Part shown: piece by piece, positions 5,148 to 63,851 of the stretch
How the letters are laid out: each line of letters begins with the position of its first letter
How positions within the stretch are numbered: position 1 is the first letter of the stretch
Source of the DNA: Escherichia coli
GTDB lineage: Bacteria; Pseudomonadota; Gammaproteobacteria; Enterobacterales; Enterobacteriaceae
Direction: 5' to 3' (one strand)
Assembly: GCF_003334355.1 (NCBI RefSeq)
Contig: NZ_QOWP01000007.1
Length of the DNA stretch: 64,000 nucleotides
Position numbers and translations under genes: made by a program
Notes under the pieces: generated by a model
Databases searched by the model: none
What the model was told of the DNA's origin: nothing
Seen by the model: only the letters and a program-made list of their open reading frames with translations

Positions 5148-5870
5148 ATGGGTAAAACCCAGCCCTTGCCAATATTAATTACTGGCGGAGGTCGTCGCAT
5201 CGGCCTCGCCCTCGCATGGCATTTCATTAATCAAAAGCAACCGGTGATTGTCAGCTATCGGACACACTATCCAGCCATTGATGGACTGATTAATGCAGGT
5301 GCGCAGTGTATTCAGGCTGATTTTTCGACCAACGACGGTGTGATGGCGTTTGCCGATGAAGTACTAAAAAGCACCCATGGTCTGCGTGCTATTTTGCATA
5401 ACGCCAGTGCGTGGATGGCGGAAAAACCGGGTGCGCCACTGGCCGACGTACTGGCTTGCATGATGCAGATCCACGTTAATACCCCATACCTGCTCAACCA
5501 TGCGCTGGAAAGATTACTGCGTGGGCACGGACACGCCGCCAGCGATATCATTCACTTTACCGATTATGTGGTGGAGCGCGGTAGCGACAAACATATTGCG
5601 TATGCTGCAAGCAAAGCGGCACTGGATAATATGACCCGCTCGTTTGCCCGCAAGCTGGCACCGGAAGTGAAAGTGAATTCTATTGCGCCATCGCTGATCC
5701 TGTTTAATGAACATGATGATGCCGAATATCGACAACAGGCGCTGAATAAATCACTGATGAAAACCGCGCCTGGCGAGAAAGAAGTGATCGACCTGGTCGA
5801 TTACTTACTTACCAGTTGCTTTGTCACCGGACGCAGTTTCCCACTTGATGGCGGTCGTCATCTGCGTTAA
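5148..5870 (+). CDS. folM: dihydromonapterin reductase / alternative dihydrofolate reductase (SDR family)
   Basis: ORF track 240 aa; N-terminal ILITGGGRRIG Rossmann motif; matches FolM. Confidence 0.93.
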   Translation: MGKTQPLPILITGGGRRIGLALAWHFINQKQPVIVSYRTHYPAIDGLINAGAQCIQADFSTNDGVMAFADEVLKSTHGLRAILHNASAWMAEKPGAPLADVLACMMQIHVNTPYLLNHALERLLRGHGHAASDIIHFTDYVVERGSDKHIAYAASKAALDNMTRSFARKLAPEVKVNSIAPSLILFNEHDDAEYRQQALNKSLMKTAPGEKEVIDLVDYLLTSCFVTGRSFPLDGGRHLR

Positions 5871-6202
5871 TGCAGCTTTATCCAGCATATAATCAACACC
5901 CATGCGCTTATCCCCCAACACGCAACAGAACCAACAAAAGCGGCGGGCAAGCGCATCATTCCGGTGAAATACCACAGCGACACCAGGTAAACAAAATAGG
6001 GAATAATCGACCACATACTAAAAATGATGGTTGCGCGTAAGGCTTCAATGCCGCGTTCGCTGGCAACAATATAATGCGCGATAAGCGCAAAGGTCGGGAA
6101 AAGTGGAATCAGCCCGGCGATATAATAATTTTTCGTTTTTGCTAAAACACCAATCAACAGCACTACCAGCGCACCGAGCGCGGCTTTGATTACCAGCCCC
6201 AT
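5867..6202 (-). CDS. ydgC: GlpM-family inner membrane protein
   Basis: ORF track 111 aa, hydrophobic; overlaps the folM stop by 4 nt on the opposite strand. Confidence 0.88.
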   Translation of the reverse strand: MGLVIKAALGALVVLLIGVLAKTKNYYIAGLIPLFPTFALIAHYIVASERGIEALRATIIFSMWSIIPYFVYLVSLWYFTGMMRLPAAFVGSVACWGISAWVLIICWIKLH

Positions 6203-8397: not shown

Positions 8398-10760
<2,363 letters not shown>

Positions 10761-45243: not shown

Positions 45244-46101
45244 ATGTCAATTAAAACAATTAAGTATTTCTCAACAATCATTGTAGCGGTAGTTGCGGTT
45301 CTTGCCGGATGGTGGCTGTGGAATTATTACATGCAATCTCCGTGGACACGCGACGGGAAAATACGCGCAGAACAGGTTTCTATCACCCCACAGGTGTCGG
45401 GACGTATTGTTGAGCTGAATATAAAAGACAACCAGCTGGTTAACGCGGGGGATCTTCTGCTCACGATCGATAAAACGCCCTTTCAGATCGCCGAGCTGAA
45501 CGCACAGGCTCAGCTGGCGAAAGCGCAATCTGACCTCGCAAAAGCCAATAACGAAGCGAATCGTCGTCGTCATCTCTCACAAAATTTTATTTCTGCCGAA
45601 GAACTCGATACCGCTAACCTCAATGTTAAAGCGATGCAGGCCAGTGTTGATGCCGCACAGGCGACGCTGAAACAGGCACAATGGCAACTGGCGCAAACGG
45701 AAATTCGCGCTCCGGTGAGTGGATGGGTGACTAACCTTACTACCCGCATCGGCGATTACGCTGATACCGGGAAACCGCTGTTTGCCCTTGTCGACAGCCA
45801 CTCGTTTTACGTCATTGGTTATTTTGAAGAAACCAAGTTGCGCCATATCCGCGAAGGTGCACCAGCACAAATTACCCTCTATAGTGATAACAAAACGTTA
45901 CACGGTCACGTTTCCAGTATCGGTCGGGCGATTTATGATCAGAGCGTTGAAAGTGACTCAAGCCTTATTCCGGATGTTAAACCTAACGTCCCCTGGGTTC
46001 GACTCGCCCAACGCGTTCCCGTCCGCTTTGCGCTGGATAAAGTCCCAGGCGATGTCACGTTGGTGTCGGGCACCACCTGTAGCATTGCCGTAGGTCAATA
46101 A
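45244..46101 (+). CDS. ydhJ: HlyD-family membrane fusion protein (AaeA paralog)
   Basis: ORF track 45202..46101; recognised start [20 protein letters not shown] is 14 codons in, giving 285 aa; start lies 2 nt after the ydhI stop. Confidence 0.9.
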
Positions 46102-48113
46102 TGAACGCATCGTCATGGTCCTTGCGCAATTTGCCCTGGTTCAGGGCCACGCTGGCGCAATGGCGTTATGCGTTACGCAATACCATTGCCATGTGTCTGG
46201 CGCTGACGGTTGCCTATTATTTAAATCTGGATGAACCCTATTGGGCGATGACCTCGGCTGCAGTGGTTAGCTTTCCCACCGTTGGCGGTGTTATCAGCAA
46301 AAGCCTCGGACGCATCGCTGGCAGTTTGCTCGGAGCCATTGCGGCACTGCTTCTTGCCGGGCATACGCTCAATGAGCCGTGGTTTTTTCTATTGAGCATG
46401 TCGGCGTGGCTTGGCTTTTGTACCTGGGCCTGTGCGCACTTCACGAATAACGTCGCGTATGCATTTCAACTGGCGGGCTACACGGCTGCCATCATCGCCT
46501 TTCCGATGGTTAATATTACTGAGGCCAGCCAGCTGTGGGATATCGCTCAGGCGCGCGTTTGCGAGGTGATTGTCGGCATTTTGTGCGGCGGCATGATGAT
46601 GATGATCCTGCCTAGCAGTTCCGATGCTACAGCCCTTTTAACCGCATTGAAAAACATGCACGCCCGACTACTTGAACATGCCAGTTTACTCTGGCAGCCT
46701 GAAACAACCGATGCCATTCGTGCAGCACATGAAGGGGTGATTGGACAGATACTGACCATGAATTTGCTGCGTATCCAGGCTTTCTGGAGCCACTATCGTT
46801 TTCGCCAGCAAAACGCGCGCCTTAATGCGCTGCTCCACCAGCAATTACGTATGACCAGTGTCATCTCCAGCCTGCGACGTATGTTGCTCAACTGGCCCTC
46901 ACCGCCAGGTGCCACACGAGAAATTCTCGAACAGTTGCTGACGGCGCTCGCCAGTTCGCAAACAGATGTTTACACCGTCGCACGTATTATCGCCCCGCTA
47001 CGCCCGACCAACGTCGCCGACTATCGGCACGTCGCCTTCTGGCAGCGACTACGTTATTTTTGCCACCTTTATCTGCAAAGTAGTCAGGAATTACATCGTC
47101 TGCAAAGCGGTGTAGATGATCATACCAGACTCCCACGGACATCCGGCCTGGCTCGTCATACCGATAACGCCGAAGCTATGTGGAGCGGGCTGCGTACATT
47201 TTGTACGTTGATGATGATTGGCGCATGGAGTATTGCTTCGCAATGGGATGCCGGTGCCAATGCATTAACGCTGGCAGCAATTAGCTGCGTACTCTACTCC
47301 GCCGTCGCAGCACCGTTTAAGTCGTTGTCACTTCTGATGCGCACGCTGGTGTTACTTTCGCTATTCAGCTTTGTGGTCAAATTTGGTCTGATGGTCCAGA
47401 TTAGCGATCTGTGGCAATTTTTACTGTTTCTCTTTCCACTGCTGGCGACAATGCAGCTTCTTAAATTGCAGATGCCAAAATTTGCCGCATTGTGGGGGCA
47501 ACTGATTGTTTTTATGGGTTCTTTTATCGCTGTCACTAATCCCCCGGTGTATGATTTTGCTGATTTTCTTAACGATAATCTGGCAAAAATCGTTGGCGTC
47601 GCGTTGGCGTGGTTAGCGTTCGCCATTCTGCGTCCAGGATCGGATGCTCGTAAAAGCCGCCGCCATATTCGCGCGCTGCGCCGGGATTTTGTCGATCAGC
47701 TAAGCCGCCATCCAACACTGAGTGAAAGCGAATTTGAATCGCTCACTTATCATCACGTCAGTCAGTTGAGTAACAGCCAGGATGCGCTGGCTCGCCGTTG
47801 GTTATTACGCTGGGGTGTAGTGCTGCTGAACTGTTCTCATGTTGTCTGGCAATTGCGCGACTGGGAATCGCGTTCCGATCCGTTATCGCGAGTACGGGAT
47901 AACTGTATTTCACTGTTGCGGGGAGTGATGAGTGAGCGTGGCGTTCAGCAAAAATCACTGGCGGCCACACTTGAAGAATTACAGCGGATTTGCGACAGCC
48001 TTGCCCGTCATCATCAACCTGCCGCCCGTGAGCTGGCGGCAATTGTCTGGCGGCTGTACTGCTCGCTTTCGCAACTTGAGCAAGCACCACCGCAAGGTAC
48101 GCTGGCCTCTTAA
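46101..48113 (+). CDS. ydhK: FUSC/AaeB-family putative efflux transporter
   Basis: ORF track 670 aa; start overlaps the ydhJ stop; matches YdhK. Confidence 0.9.
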
Positions 48114-48635
48114 TTACTTAATTACACCACAGGCATAGCGTTCACCGCCACCGCCCAGCGGTTTAGGTTGATCGGACATATTATCGCCGCCAACGTGGAC
48201 CATCAGCGCTTTGTCTTTGATTTCATCCAGTGATTTCAGACGAGGCGCGATGACGGCATCGGTAGCTTTGCCGTCATTATTGACGACCAGTGCAGGCAGA
48301 TCGCCTAAATGCCCGGCACCTTCTGGCCCTTCATGTTTACCGGTATTTTGTGGATCAAGATGCCCGCCTGCGGATTCCGCGGCGCTGGCTTTGCCATCTT
48401 TGGTGGCTGGCTGGCAGCTTCCTTTGGCATGAATATGGAAGCCATGTTCACCGGGGGGTAATGCTTTCAGATCGGGCGAAAACTCCAGACCTTTATCGGT
48501 TTCAGTAATGGTGACGCTACCAATTGACTGCCCTACCCCTTGCGACGTGACGAGGTTCATCTCGACTTTTTCACTGGCAGCTTGTGCGCCGGTTGCAACA
48601 ACCAGCGCCAGAATAGCCAGACTAAAACGTTTCAT
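48114..48635 (-). CDS. sodC: periplasmic Cu/Zn superoxide dismutase
   Basis: ORF track 48114..48686; recognised start MKRFSLAILALVVATGAQA (signal peptide) is 17 codons in, giving 173 aa; Cu/Zn-SOD motif GGGGERYACGVI. Confidence 0.95.
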   Translation of the reverse strand: MKRFSLAILALVVATGAQAASEKVEMNLVTSQGVGQSIGSVTITETDKGLEFSPDLKALPPGEHGFHIHAKGSCQPATKDGKASAAESAGGHLDPQNTGKHEGPEGAGHLGDLPALVVNNDGKATDAVIAPRLKSLDEIKDKALMVHVGGDNMSDQPKPLGGGGERYACGVIK

Positions 48636-48715
48636 AGGACCTCCGTTCATTGTGCATTCCTGAATAAGTGTAAACCAGTGACACATTTTTGAACGGCGGC
48701 TATTCCTAAAAGTGC

Positions 48716-61836: not shown

Positions 61837-61852
61837 AGGCAAACGTTTACCT
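61837..61852. promoter_or_regulatory. PurR box (autoregulatory operator 1)
   Basis: aggCAAACGTTTacct matches the PurR consensus aCGCAAACGTTTgCGT, in the purR 5' untranslated region. Confidence 0.6.
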
Positions 61853-61896: not shown

Positions 61897-62922
61897 ATGG
61901 CAACAATAAAAGATGTAGCGAAACGAGCAAACGTTTCCACTACAACTGTGTCACACGTGATCAACAAAACACGTTTCGTCGCTGAAGAAACGCGCAACGC
62001 CGTGTGGGCAGCGATTAAAGAATTACACTACTCCCCTAGCGCGGTGGCGCGTAGCCTGAAGGTTAACCACACCAAGTCTATCGGTTTGCTGGCGACCAGC
62101 AGCGAAGCGGCCTATTTTGCCGAGATCATTGAAGCGGTTGAAAAAAATTGCTTCCAGAAAGGTTACACCCTGATTCTGGGTAATGCGTGGAACAATCTTG
62201 AGAAACAGCGGGCTTATCTGTCGATGATGGCGCAAAAACGCGTCGATGGTCTGCTGGTGATGTGTTCTGAGTACCCAGAGCCGTTGCTGGCGATGCTGGA
62301 AGAGTATCGCCATATCCCAATGGTGGTGATGGACTGGGGTGAAGCAAAAGCTGACTTCACCGATGCGGTCATTGATAACGCGTTTGAAGGCGGCTACATG
62401 GCCGGGCGTTATCTGATTGAACGCGGTCACCGCGAAATCGGCGTTATCCCCGGCCCGCTGGAACGTAACACTGGCGCAGGCCGCCTTGCCGGTTTTATGA
62501 AGGCGATGGAAGAAGCAATGATCAAGGTGCCGGAAAGCTGGATTGTGCAGGGTGATTTTGAACCTGAATCCGGTTATCGCGCCATGCAGCAAATCCTGTC
62601 GCAGCCGCATCGCCCTACTGCCGTCTTCTGTGGTGGCGATATCATGGCAATGGGCGCACTTTGTGCTGCTGATGAAATGGGCCTGCGCGTCCCGCAGGAT
62701 GTTTCGCTGATCGGTTATGATAACGTGCGCAACGCCCGCTATTTTACGCCGGCGCTGACCACGATCCATCAGCCAAAAGACTCGCTGGGTGAAACAGCGT
62801 TCAACATGCTGTTGGATCGTATCGTCAACAAACGTGAAGAACCGCAGTCCATTGAAGTGCATCCGCGCTTGATTGAACGCCGCTCCGTGGCTGACGGCCC
62901 GTTCCGCGACTATCGTCGTTAA
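61897..62922 (+). CDS. purR: purine repressor (LacI family)
   Basis: ORF track 341 aa; [33 protein letters not shown] matches PurR. Confidence 0.97.
61925..61940. promoter_or_regulatory. PurR box (autoregulatory operator 2, inside the purR coding sequence)
   Basis: gagCAAACGTTTccac about 30 nt into the purR ORF; purR is known to be autoregulated from operators downstream of its promoter. Confidence 0.55.
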
Positions 62923-63851
62923 TCACCCGTTGCGGGAGTCTCTTCCGGCTCCCGCAGCCACTCCTTATTCAGCGTCTCACTATCGCCGAGATACTCAAGC
63001 AACCAGGTTAACGCAGGCGACATATCATTTTGCTGCCATGTCAGACAACATGCCGAATCCGGAAAGGGGTTTTCCAGTTCTAATGCTACCCACTTCCCCT
63101 CATTAAGCCACGGTTTGGCGAAATGTGTTGGCACCATCCCTATGCATAATCCTGCCGAGATACAGGTTGCCGATGATTCCCAGTCAGGCACGACAAGTCT
63201 TTTTTGGTTATCCAGCAACCAGGTAATACGCTTAGGTAGCGTTCGCGAGGTGTCTTCGCGCACCAACGACGGCCAGTTGCGCAACGTATCATCGCTGAAT
63301 GGGCCATCCATCAACGCCAGCGGGTGGTGGCTGGCAACAACGCAACTCCAGCTTAGCATCCCCATATCCCGGAAGGCATAACGACCGCCTACCGGAATCG
63401 CGCGTGTTGCGCCAATCGCCAGTTCCACGCGCCCGTCGGAAAGCGCATCCCAGACACCGTTGAACACTTCCTGAAAGACAAGAAGTTCGACATCATCAAA
63501 ATGGCGATAAAAATCAACGATCATCTGCCGTGTACGTTCTGGCCTGACAATATTATCCACTGCGATAGCTAACTGACCGCGCCAGCCGTTCGCTATCTGC
63601 TGACATTGCTGGCGGGTGATCTGCATTTTTTTGACAACAGAGCGCCCTTCTTTGAGAAACCACGCTCCAGCAGCGGTCAGCTCCACATCACGGTGCCGTC
63701 GTTCAAAGAGCGGCACCGCCAGCCACTCTTCCAGCTGACGCACGGTATAGCTGACCGCAGAAGGAACGCGATGCAGCTCCTGTGCCGCAGCGCTAAAACT
63801 ACCATTACGCGCTACCGCATCAACAACTTCGAGTGAATATTCTGACCACAT
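62919..63851 (-). CDS. punR: LysR-family transcriptional regulator PunR (YdhB)
   Basis: ORF track 310 aa; N-terminal LysR HTH; 3' end overlaps the purR stop by 4 nt. Confidence 0.92.

Follow-up and report, generated by a model that had tools for sequence, protein, structure and literature searches.

To begin with, the convergent genes purR and punR raise the question of whether their shared stop codons reflect a coupling of two regulators or arise as a by-product of how the junction is built, and of where the two transcripts end. The window, that is, the whole stretch of 64,000 nt of Escherichia coli DNA analysed here, was 100% identical to E. coli genomes with RefSeq-annotated purR, punR and punC, which bears out the gene names given in a preliminary description of this DNA. 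The same description placed both stops within 4 nt, and the letters at 62910-62929 (ctatcgtcgT TAA tcacccg) matched this exactly, as the ORF list gave the purR stop TAA at 62920-62922 and read the punR stop TAA from the complementary strand of 62919-62921. Both frames are real protein-coding genes according to their RefSeq annotation, their homologues in 78 or more species and the expected Pfam domains (HTH_1 and LysR_substrate on the punR homologues), and experiments have characterised PunR (Rodionova et al. 2021, PMC8376909). The regulator had been described as acting on purine-nucleoside export, a point to be corrected, since PunC is described as an uptake transporter of purine nucleosides and not an exporter (PMC8376909). 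Moreover, the junction was the same base for base in K-12 MG1655 by alignment, where purR (1737844..1738869) and punR (1738866..1739798) present the identical 4-nt overlap in RefSeq. The arrangement is thus a known one, already included in the standard K-12 annotation. The features of the junction are collected in Table 1.

Table 1. Coordinates of the features at the purR/punR junction, in positions of the window.
Feature	Position	Strand	Description and basis
purR CDS	61897..62922	+	341 aa, LacI-family purine repressor; ORF list and RefSeq
punR (ydhB) CDS	62919..63851	-	310 aa, LysR-family activator of punC; ORF list and RefSeq
Tetramer TTAA with both stop codons inside	62919..62922	.	Read off the sequence
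PunR 7-codon C-terminal extension	62922..62942	-	Residues 304-310, ETPATGD; reads through the loop and 5′ arm of the hairpin
purR 3′ UTR, 38-39 nt	62923..62961	+	purR stop and mapped end; fully antisense to the end of the punR CDS
Conserved hairpin	62929..62958	+ (purR sense)	Inverted repeat and folding; inside punR codons 298-308
C-rich, G-poor stretch, possible Rho loading region	62959..63058	+	C/G 1.67
Published steady-state purR mRNA 3′ end	62960..62961	+	Term-seq; 2-3 nt past the last paired base, 62958

The absence of an intervening terminator, as previously claimed, holds in the sense that zero intergenic DNA separates the two genes. However, the statement is misleading, as a conserved terminator-type hairpin embedded in punR had been overlooked. 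This hairpin starts 7 nt past the purR stop and presents a stem of 12 bp, including two G.U pairs, in which the 5′ arm (62929-62940) and the 3′ arm (62947-62958) enclose the loop UCUUCC (62941-62946) around a perfect 8-bp core (62931-62938 / 62949-62956). Its folding energy was -23.2 kcal/mol compared to -10.9 ± 2.3 for shuffled sequences (z = -5.3), with none of 200 shuffles being equally stable, while in the punR sense the folding downstream of the punR stop was not above that of shuffles (z of -0.1 and -0.6). In E. coli, the tail following the stem (CACUCCUU) had U at 3 of its 8 nt, which does not form a U-tract; the median over 79 sequences was 2 in either direction, with a value of 1 in Klebsiella and Enterobacter. 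A simple terminator pattern scan, which otherwise performed at chance level (4 calls vs. 3.2 expected), left the hairpin uncalled owing to its U-tract rule. Furthermore, C exceeded G in the 100 nt past the hairpin in the purR sense, compared to a C/G of 0.87 in the 100 nt past the punR stop in the punR sense; the medians over the 78 species were 1.22 and 0.90, respectively.

Published transcription data place the purR 3′ end at the foot of this hairpin. Two Term-seq ends, 1738907 and 1738908 (+), are listed as ‘primary purR, antisense ydhB’ (Adams et al. 2021, PMC7815308, supplementary file 1), and they were carried over to the window through the MG1655 alignment. The end is sharp and was reproduced in two Term-seq conditions (PMC7815308). 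As it lies 38-39 nt past the stop, the final 13 codons of punR are covered in antisense by the purR 3′ UTR. Thus, of the mutual 3′ UTR antisense that had been proposed, the half running from purR into punR is confirmed by Term-seq, while the reverse half, punR transcripts reading into purR, is only suggested by antisense counts (antisense vs. sense RPM of 10.5 vs. 31.4 for purR and 2.0 vs. 28.3 for ydhB; Huang et al. 2020, PMC7373196, Table S1c). The outcome that had been proposed as a refutation, in which each transcript would end right at its own stop codon, is not a realistic expectation and is contradicted for purR by the mapped end. Expression of the two genes is weak (about 30 RPM). The Term-seq lists of Adams et al. 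2021 (PMC7815308) hold no punR 3′ end, the TERMITe supplements hold no purR entry, and no Rho-termination region appears within 17384xx-17391xx (Adams et al., supplementary file 2), where low expression may hide one.

The hairpin was found in all the 78 Enterobacteriaceae species compared, appearing 1-15 nt past the purR stop in 77 of the 78 species genomes with folding energies from -15.7 to -27. It ranked in the best 1% of the 45-nt windows of purR and punR in 53 of the 78 loci and in the best 5% in 75. MAFFT and RNAalifold applied to all 78 junctions together did not find a consensus structure, since the axis of the hairpin is not the same in every lineage but slides along the sequence, with the stem retained and rebuilt in six registers. 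Covariation was then run on sequences grouped by hairpin axis in a fixed ungapped frame. In alignment A3, 90% of the cells were paired compared to 32-52% when the frame was slid, with double changes at 5 of 10 pairs and a score reached by none of 500 shuffles; in alignment A4, the proportions were 84% and 33-49%, with double changes at 5 of 12 pairs. The mean folding energies over the 78 species were -20.8 and -20.5 kcal/mol in the purR and punR senses, respectively, so that folding energy alone is uninformative on which strand matters. On the other hand, the internal pairs comprised 35 G.U in the purR sense vs. 9 A.C (equivalent to G.U in the punR sense), a bias in the sequences which suggests that the purR-sense RNA would be the selected form, although it may rest on few independent events given the equal energies in both senses.

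The position of the punR stop varied among the same species. When each gene was scanned from its start, 27 species showed the 4-nt overlap, 5 a gap of 1-5 nt, and 46 a punR stop within the hairpin loop with a gap of 14-45 nt. In these 46 species, Klebsiella and Enterobacter being examples, the stop occupies the position of E. coli codon 304 (62940-62942) and PunR ends in ‘...EWLREPE*’ at 303 aa, while in the other 32 the protein reaches 307-310 aa with variable tails. Such tails are dictated by the arm complementarity, their T/A/V-P-A motif resulting from translation of the arm that pairs with CGGGAG. The loop stop is absent from Escherichia, most Citrobacter, Salmonella and some others, which carry a sense codon there. 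Relatives therefore show both stop states, as expected for stop displacement in the YTAR class of overlaps; both occur within Enterobacteriaceae and also among outgroups, and the loop stop may have been either lost or gained. The tail-to-tail order itself is conserved across Enterobacterales (also PMC8376909). Among the outgroups, Serratia (CTAG, 314 aa) and Erwinia (CTAA, 304 aa) each show an independent recurrence of the overlap, while in Pantoea a 72-nt spacer separates the genes and purR is followed by a clear terminator with a U-tract.

The tetramer shared by the 27 overlap species was TTAA in 22 and CTAA in 5, and it follows almost automatically from the composition of the junction. In the species compared, purR invariably ends in CGY-TAA/TAG, so the opposite strand carries a stop in one frame, and all 27 species keep the same 35-nt spacing, which places punR in the frame that reads it. 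Stop-sharing tetramers of this kind (CTAA, TTAA, CTAG or TTAG) form a known over-represented class (Lillo & Krakauer 2007, PMC2174442), and 4-nt convergent overlaps have been attributed to stop-codon mutation (PMC2174442). The sharing of stops by tus and fumC, which the preliminary description had also pointed out, was recovered here (tus ends at 9360 and fumC at 9357, with TTAA at 9357..9360), and a third pair that it had missed, folM/ydgC, shares TTAA at 5867..5870. Stop tetramers were thus common to 3 of the 10 convergent pairs of the window, which makes the arrangement an ordinary one. Rho-termination regions lay inside the partner gene in all three other tight convergent pairs of the window.

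The explanation considered probable is that of a compressed tail-to-tail junction of two weakly expressed regulators, in which a GC-rich stem-loop would be the functional element, defining the stable 3′ end of the purR mRNA, and the overlap a by-product. As no intergenic DNA is left, the 3′ arm of the hairpin is built from conserved punR codons (W-L-R-E-P), and the 5′ arm is whatever comes after them. Where the loop stop is missing, the ribosome reads seven extra codons and stops on the complement of the purR CGT-TAA; the punR stop is then the next in-frame stop, and hence the 4-nt overlap would not be a device. Transcription of purR probably runs beyond the hairpin into punR antisense and would be stopped diffusely, by Rho on the C-rich untranslated RNA or occasionally by oncoming polymerases, after which 3′ exonucleases may trim the RNA back to the hairpin, which would protect the message. 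Transcripts of punR would have to cross this palindrome as well, to end at some point within purR antisense. From these data, we infer both this mode of termination and a lack of regulatory consequence.

Alternatively, the hairpin might be an ordinary Rho-independent terminator of purR, with release in the CACUCCUUAUUC tail and subsequent loss of a few bases by trimming, a reading that is possible but rather doubtful. The stem is stable, GC-rich and close to the stop, as in canonical intrinsic terminators, but the expected U-tract of about 7-8 nt is missing: some U appears 4-11 nt past the stem in E. coli and Citrobacter, yet only at 3 of the first 8 nt in the former and with the low median given above. 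Likewise, the purR end is sharp in both Term-seq conditions, but it falls 2-3 nt past the stem instead of 7-9 nt. Neither does the pattern scan give a call, while the lack of a reported Rho-termination region at the junction would agree with intrinsic release. A total of 19 out of 58 E. coli convergent overlaps hold a predicted Rho-independent terminator of one gene inside its partner (PMC2174442), and the terminator of Pantoea shows that a U-tract can follow purR; however, the hairpin is conserved without a U-rich tail, so its conserved function needs no U-tract. Given that the U-tract is absent in both directions, a canonical intrinsic terminator is less likely than a stem-loop protecting the 3′ end or causing pausing. 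With the moderately U-rich tail CACUCCUUAUUC of E. coli and Citrobacter, it is possible that intrinsic termination takes place in part and that trimming follows.

It appears unlikely that the palindrome acts as an overlapping bidirectional terminator, in which pausing and head-on or trailing collisions of polymerases would end both transcripts. Overlapping bidirectional terminators between convergent genes were reportedly revealed by SEnd-seq in 2019 by Ju, Li and Liu. The class differs from intrinsic terminators and is Rho-independent (Wang et al. 2022, bioRxiv 10.1101/2022.10.23.513370). The purR/punR palindrome is shared by convergent genes, folds equally in both transcripts and is devoid of a U-tract both ways, all of which agree with this class. 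Nevertheless, its 3′ base in the punR sense is 62929 in E. coli, upstream of the punR stop (62921-62919), and release at or near the hairpin would thus yield punR messages without a stop. Furthermore, collisions should be rare between genes expressed at about 30 RPM, no punR 3′ end is among the Term-seq ends of Adams et al., and the excess of G.U over A.C (35 to 9) favours the purR sense.

The coupling put forward in the preliminary description, in which the overlap would link the two regulators reciprocally through transcriptional interference or antisense 3′ ends, is very improbable. The purR 3′ UTR is indeed antisense to 38-39 nt of punR, antisense reads over purR amount to about one third of the sense reads, some p19-captured dsRNA was found over purR (13-85 RPM; PMC7373196), and 3′ ends overlap in 276 of 370 E. 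coli convergent operons (PMC4161252). However, the dsRNA density obtained with p19 is 38-fold lower at convergent than at divergent overlaps genome-wide, and PurR protein was unchanged in rnc-14 compared to the wild type (1.03-fold; adjusted P-values of 0.07, 0.87 and 0.16; PMC7373196, Table S2). Moreover, the tail-to-tail order is conserved across Enterobacterales, in favour of a coupling, but the overlap is absent in 46 of the 78 species and replaced by a 72-nt spacer in Pantoea, so it is dispensable. The same geometry appears in the functionally unrelated pairs tus/fumC and folM/ydgC. Both promoters are weak, and transcriptional interference of any consequence is unlikely at such low expression.

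A lineage-specific form of coupling is conceivable but highly doubtful. In the overlap lineages (E. coli, Citrobacter and Salmonella), the hairpin lies 8 nt upstream of the punR stop and not around it, so that punR messages ending at the hairpin or trimmed to it would lack a stop and might enter tmRNA and non-stop decay. If this were true, the output of PunR would depend on 3′-end processing and on transcription of the purR strand, resulting in a real coupling of the purine repressor with the activator of nucleoside uptake. Finally, it is scarcely credible that the palindrome has no role as RNA structure and arose by chance in the punR coding sequence, or serves as a site for protein binding or at the DNA level. 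Its 3′ arm does code conserved PunR residues and it had zero Rfam matches, but this reading already appears largely refuted by covariation, as the arms stay complementary through changes of sequence (GGGAGCC, GGCGCCGG, GGACGCC, GGACACCC, GGTGCCGG and others), contrary to what a site recognised by a protein would show. In addition, six registers of the rebuilt stem occur, the mRNA 3′ end lies at the hairpin foot, and the z-score against shuffles is -5.3. Two specific elements were also discarded, a REP element (the sequence does not resemble one and is present in a single copy) and a PurR operator (the only PurR-box-like site appears at 61837-61852, upstream of purR).

The broad importance of the junction is little, as the overlap is annotated, the literature covers its class and origin, and a published table already lists the purR 3′ end. 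In practice, since the purR terminator region is embedded in punR, engineering either gene alters the 3′ end of the other, which affects deletions, C-terminal tags on PunR or PurR and codon changes. Compared across species, the junction also illustrates cleanly how the same bases can encode both a stem-loop in the RNA and the tail of a protein, while the stop codon shifts between the loop of the hairpin and the stop of the neighbouring gene.

Regarding known systems, the junction resembles canonical intrinsic terminators in its GC-rich hairpin soon after the purR stop and its sharp 3′ end, and differs from them in the lack of a U run and in an end 2-3 rather than 7-9 nt past the stem. With bidirectional terminators, it shares the convergent genes and a U-tract-less palindrome folding on both strands, but only one 3′ end is mapped (purR), the hairpin precedes the punR stop in E. 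coli and expression is low. As in excludons, neighbouring transcripts of opposite strands overlap; however, the overlap shown spans only 38-39 nt, most relatives lack the arrangement and an effect of RNase III was not seen (PurR 1.03-fold in rnc-14). A likeness is also found with the U-less stem-loops that guard Rho-dependent 3′ ends, some of them inside downstream genes (Dar & Sorek 2018, PMC6061677), as the purR stem-loop is stable, GC-rich and U-less, has the 3′ end directly after it and C over G downstream, and lies inside the neighbouring gene; the difference is that Rho dependence and trimming are presumed for purR and that the list of Adams et al. includes no Rho region there. Nothing essential differs from the class of Lillo & Krakauer: two real genes on opposite strands have stops sharing TTAA, a termination signal of purR lies within the punR coding sequence, and the origin fits a stop displaced to the next in-frame stop. 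To this class, purR/punR adds comparative detail, namely an alternative stop in the hairpin loop and a protein extension that reads through the hairpin arm.

The junction between purR and punR was found to be identical at every base to that of E. coli K-12 MG1655 (NC_000913.3 position = window x + 1,675,947). Moreover, the surrounding 2.2 kb matched several RefSeq E. coli genomes with 100% identity and were present at an identity of at least 95% in 5,425 of 5,426 complete genomes, where the annotation reads purR, punR, punC. The preliminary description had placed the stop codons of both genes, and likewise those of tus and fumC, within the same 4 nt, and both statements were confirmed from the gene coordinates. 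In particular, the RefSeq annotation of MG1655 carries the identical purR/punR overlap (purR 1737844..1738869, punR 1738866..1739798), which is ordinary and already annotated. A 279-aa open frame antisense to most of purR shows no sign of being a gene; because of it, a punR frame that bypassed the common TTAA would meet no stop for hundreds of nucleotides.

Window coordinates of the features considered, with outgroup loci (L084 to L087) numbered separately
Feature	Position	Strand	Remark
purR ORF	61897..62922	+	stop TAA 62920-62922
punR (formerly ydhB) ORF	63851..62919	-	stop TAA, complement of 62919-62921
Shared TTAA	62919..62922		holds purR and punR stops
Hairpin	62929..62958	+ (purR strand)	starts 7 nt past purR stop
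PurR-box-like AGGCAAACGTTTACCT	61837..61852	+	45 nt upstream of purR start
Weak terminator-like site, CGCTGTTTCACCCAGCG then AGTCTTTTGG	62783..62799	-	in purR, 120 nt beyond punR stop
279-aa open frame	62023..62862	-	antisense to purR
folM	5148..5870	+	shared TTAA 5867..5870
ydgC	5867..6202	-	shared TTAA 5867..5870
tus / fumC	ends 9360 / 9357		shared TTAA
fumC-sense hairpin	about 9302..9347	-	inside tus 3' end, 12-57 nt past fumC stop
ydhK	46101..48113	+	stop abuts sodC stop (48113/48114), 0-nt spacer
sodC	48114..48686	-
Rho-termination region antisense to folM	roughly 5280 (MG1655 1681110)	-	585 nt beyond ydgC stop
Rho-termination region antisense to tus	roughly 9070 (MG1655 1684895)	-	290 nt beyond fumC stop
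Rho-termination region antisense to ydhK	roughly 47900 (MG1655 1723937)	-	197 nt beyond sodC stop
Serratia plymuthica	L084 3442..3445		4-nt overlap CTAG; PunR 314 aa
Erwinia sp. 9145	L085 3412..3415		4-nt overlap CTAA; PunR 304 aa
Yersinia pseudotuberculosis record	L086 3494..3631		138-nt overlap with purR; 376-aa PunR called
Pantoea sp.	L087 3413..3484		72-nt spacer, U-tract terminator

The shared-stop arrangement is not unusual: a stop tetramer was shared in 3 of the 10 convergent gene pairs of the MG1655 stretch matching the window, including folM/ydgC, which the preliminary description had not listed. A total of 58 convergent overlaps have been counted in E. coli and ascribed to stop-codon mutation, and in 19 of them the predicted Rho-independent terminator of one gene must fall within the coding sequence of its partner (Lillo & Krakauer 2007, PMC2174442). 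In all three other tight pairs of the window, transcription of the minus-strand gene continues into the partner gene until Rho stops it (Adams et al. 2021, PMC7815308, supplementary file 2). Furthermore, a strong 14-bp fumC-sense hairpin was found inside tus (90-nt fold of -36 kcal/mol, z -3.5), while folding the tus-sense side of that junction gave no structure (z +0.6); this layout, with a hairpin within the partner's coding sequence, is that of purR/punR.

The claim that no terminator intervenes between purR and punR did not hold, as a strong terminator-type hairpin lies on the purR-sense strand, entirely within punR codons 298-308. Its 12-bp stem contains a perfect 8-bp core (TGCGGGAG/CTCCCGCA) as well as two G.U pairs and is closed by the loop UCUUCC. 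The folding energy was -23.2 kcal/mol, whereas dinucleotide shuffles gave -10.9 +/- 2.3 (z -5.3), none of 200 being equally stable. No Rfam match was found for the hairpin, and punR-sense folding 3' of the punR stop gave nothing above chance (z -0.1 and -0.6).

A curated Term-seq 3' end, labelled 'primary: purR; antisense: ydhB', maps to 1738907 (+) and 1738908 (+), in one growth condition each (Adams et al. 2021, PMC7815308, supplementary file 1). Converted to the window, it falls at 62960/62961, in agreement with the printed flanking sequence, that is, 2-3 nt beyond the last paired base and 38-39 nt beyond the purR stop. Therefore, the purR mRNA carries a short 3' UTR that ends in the hairpin and must be antisense to the final 13 punR codons. 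Of the mutual 3' UTR antisense proposed earlier, the purR half is thereby supported, while the punR half only fits read counts given per gene and not localised: in the wild type, purR had 31.4 RPM sense and 10.5 RPM antisense, and ydhB 28.3 and 2.0, respectively (Huang et al. 2020, PMC7373196, Table S1c), values which fit an efficient ending of purR and some punR read-through into purR. Between 17384xx and 17391xx, the tables of Adams et al. contain neither a punR 3' end nor a Rho-termination region. The weak terminator-like site within purR was the only punR 3'-end candidate of the pattern scan, in which the number of such sites was at chance level. Two additional purR-strand 3' ends (PMC7815308) lie 11 nt ahead of the start codon (MG1655 1737833, window about 61886) and 108 nt inside purR (MG1655 1737952, window about 62005). 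Upstream of purR there is also a PurR-box-like sequence, whose 3-mismatch match is at chance level window-wide.

A scan with PunR, taking one genome per species, yielded 80 Enterobacteriaceae loci, 78 of which reached far enough past punR, and purR was convergent and directly downstream in all 78. The 4-nt overlap appeared in 27 species (TTAA in 22, CTAA in 5) with a PunR of 310 aa, while 5 species had a gap of 1-5 nt (307-309 aa), 45 a gap of 14-22 nt and one a gap of 45 nt (both 303 aa). The 303-aa proteins end in '...EWLREPE*', with the stop codon within the hairpin loop. The 3' arm encodes the conserved PunR codons W-L-R-E-P, and the 5' arm corresponds to a variable tail or to spacer; PunR ends in the loop when codon 304 is a stop, and translation goes on through the 5' arm when it is a sense codon, as in E. 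coli (GAG, 62940-62942). In every species purR ends in CGY-TAA or CGY-TAG, and therefore the opposite strand has TAA or TAG in one frame; the 35-nt spacing placing punR in that frame was found in all 27 overlap species. Conservation of the seven extra residues is poor (ETPATGD, DEAPAQQA, EEVPAGEA, ETPAPGRD and others), and their recurring T/A/V-P-A merely results from translating the arm that pairs with CGGGAG, which argues that the tail is shaped by the RNA stem rather than by protein function.

All 78 species had the hairpin, the energies of the 45-nt windows ranging between -15.7 and -27 kcal/mol, and in 77 of them it started 1-15 nt past the purR stop. Compared with all 45-nt windows of purR and punR, it fell within the best 1% in 53 of the 78 loci and within the best 5% in 75. 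Moreover, stems varied while complementarity was kept (GGGAGCC/GGCTCCC, GGCGCCGG/CCGGCGCC, GGACGCC/GGCGTCC, GGACACCC/GGGTGTCC and GGTGCCGG/CCGGCACC), and the symmetry axis slid across six registers relative to fixed punR codons. Covariation was counted in the two largest register groups, each aligned without gaps. In the first (A3, 31 sequences), 90% of cells were paired vs. 32-52% with the partner slid, and double changes affected 5 of 10 pairs (25 cells); in the group of E. coli (A4, 22 sequences), 84% were paired vs. 33-49%, with double changes in 5 of 12 pairs. The covariation score was reached by none of 500 shuffles in either group. Within stems, 35 purR-sense G.U were found vs. 9 A.C (G.U in the punR sense), events which are not independent; this bias points to purR-sense RNA as the probable selected form, although mean folding energies were equal for the two senses (-20.8 kcal/mol for purR and -20.5 kcal/mol for punR).

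Among the outgroups, Serratia and Erwinia also showed 4-nt overlaps, but their tails are unrelated and their hairpins lie at different places; therefore, the overlap arose more than once. In the Yersinia pseudotuberculosis record, the last ~46 PunR codons run antisense through the purR 3' end, which is due either to a genuine stop loss in the wrong frame or to an artefact of annotation or assembly.

A designed interference mechanism between purR and punR found no support. Of 370 convergent E. coli operons, 276 have overlapping 3' ends, the overlap averaging 286 nt (Conway et al. 2014, PMC4161252), and dsRNA is genome-wide far scarcer at convergent than at divergent overlaps. The rnc-14 mutation of RNase III left PurR protein unaltered (median 1.03-fold; PMC7373196, Table S2), and the majority of relatives have no purR/punR overlap. 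Nor was punR borne out as a regulator of purine-nucleoside export, since PunC, which PunR activates, is reported as an uptake transporter (Rodionova et al. 2021, PMC8376909). The locus is rather a tidy case of a conserved 3' stem-loop encoded in the final codons of a neighbour, whose stop shifts between the hairpin loop and the shared tetramer across species.

As to how the hairpin works, the favoured reading is that purR transcription would read past it into punR antisense, end there by Rho-dependent or otherwise inefficient termination, and the RNA would be trimmed back to the hairpin; it is favoured because Rho-termination regions lie inside the partner gene in the three other tight pairs. 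That the hairpin is a weak intrinsic terminator of purR seems unlikely. A collision-driven bidirectional terminator, of the class of Ju et al. and Wang et al., is more doubtful still, given the low expression of both genes and the position of the E. coli hairpin before the punR stop codon. A canonical intrinsic terminator is ruled against by the missing U-tract, U making up 3 of the 8 nt that follow the stem in E. coli and a median of 2 over 79 sequences in either direction, and by the mapped end, 2-3 nt and not 7-9 nt from the stem. Read-through followed by trimming has precedents in Rho-dependent mRNAs, whose precise steady-state ends lie right after stable stem-loops lacking a U-tract, sometimes inside the downstream gene; such transcripts terminate diffusely at more distal positions and are then trimmed by PNPase/RNase II, and the sequence beyond the stem-loop holds more C than G (Dar & Sorek 2018, PMC6061677). 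The purR hairpin resembles these stem-loops in its missing U-tract, in the end right after the stem, in its location within the neighbouring gene and in the excess of C over G, with a C/G ratio of 1.67 in the 100 nt past the hairpin vs. 0.87 in the other direction.
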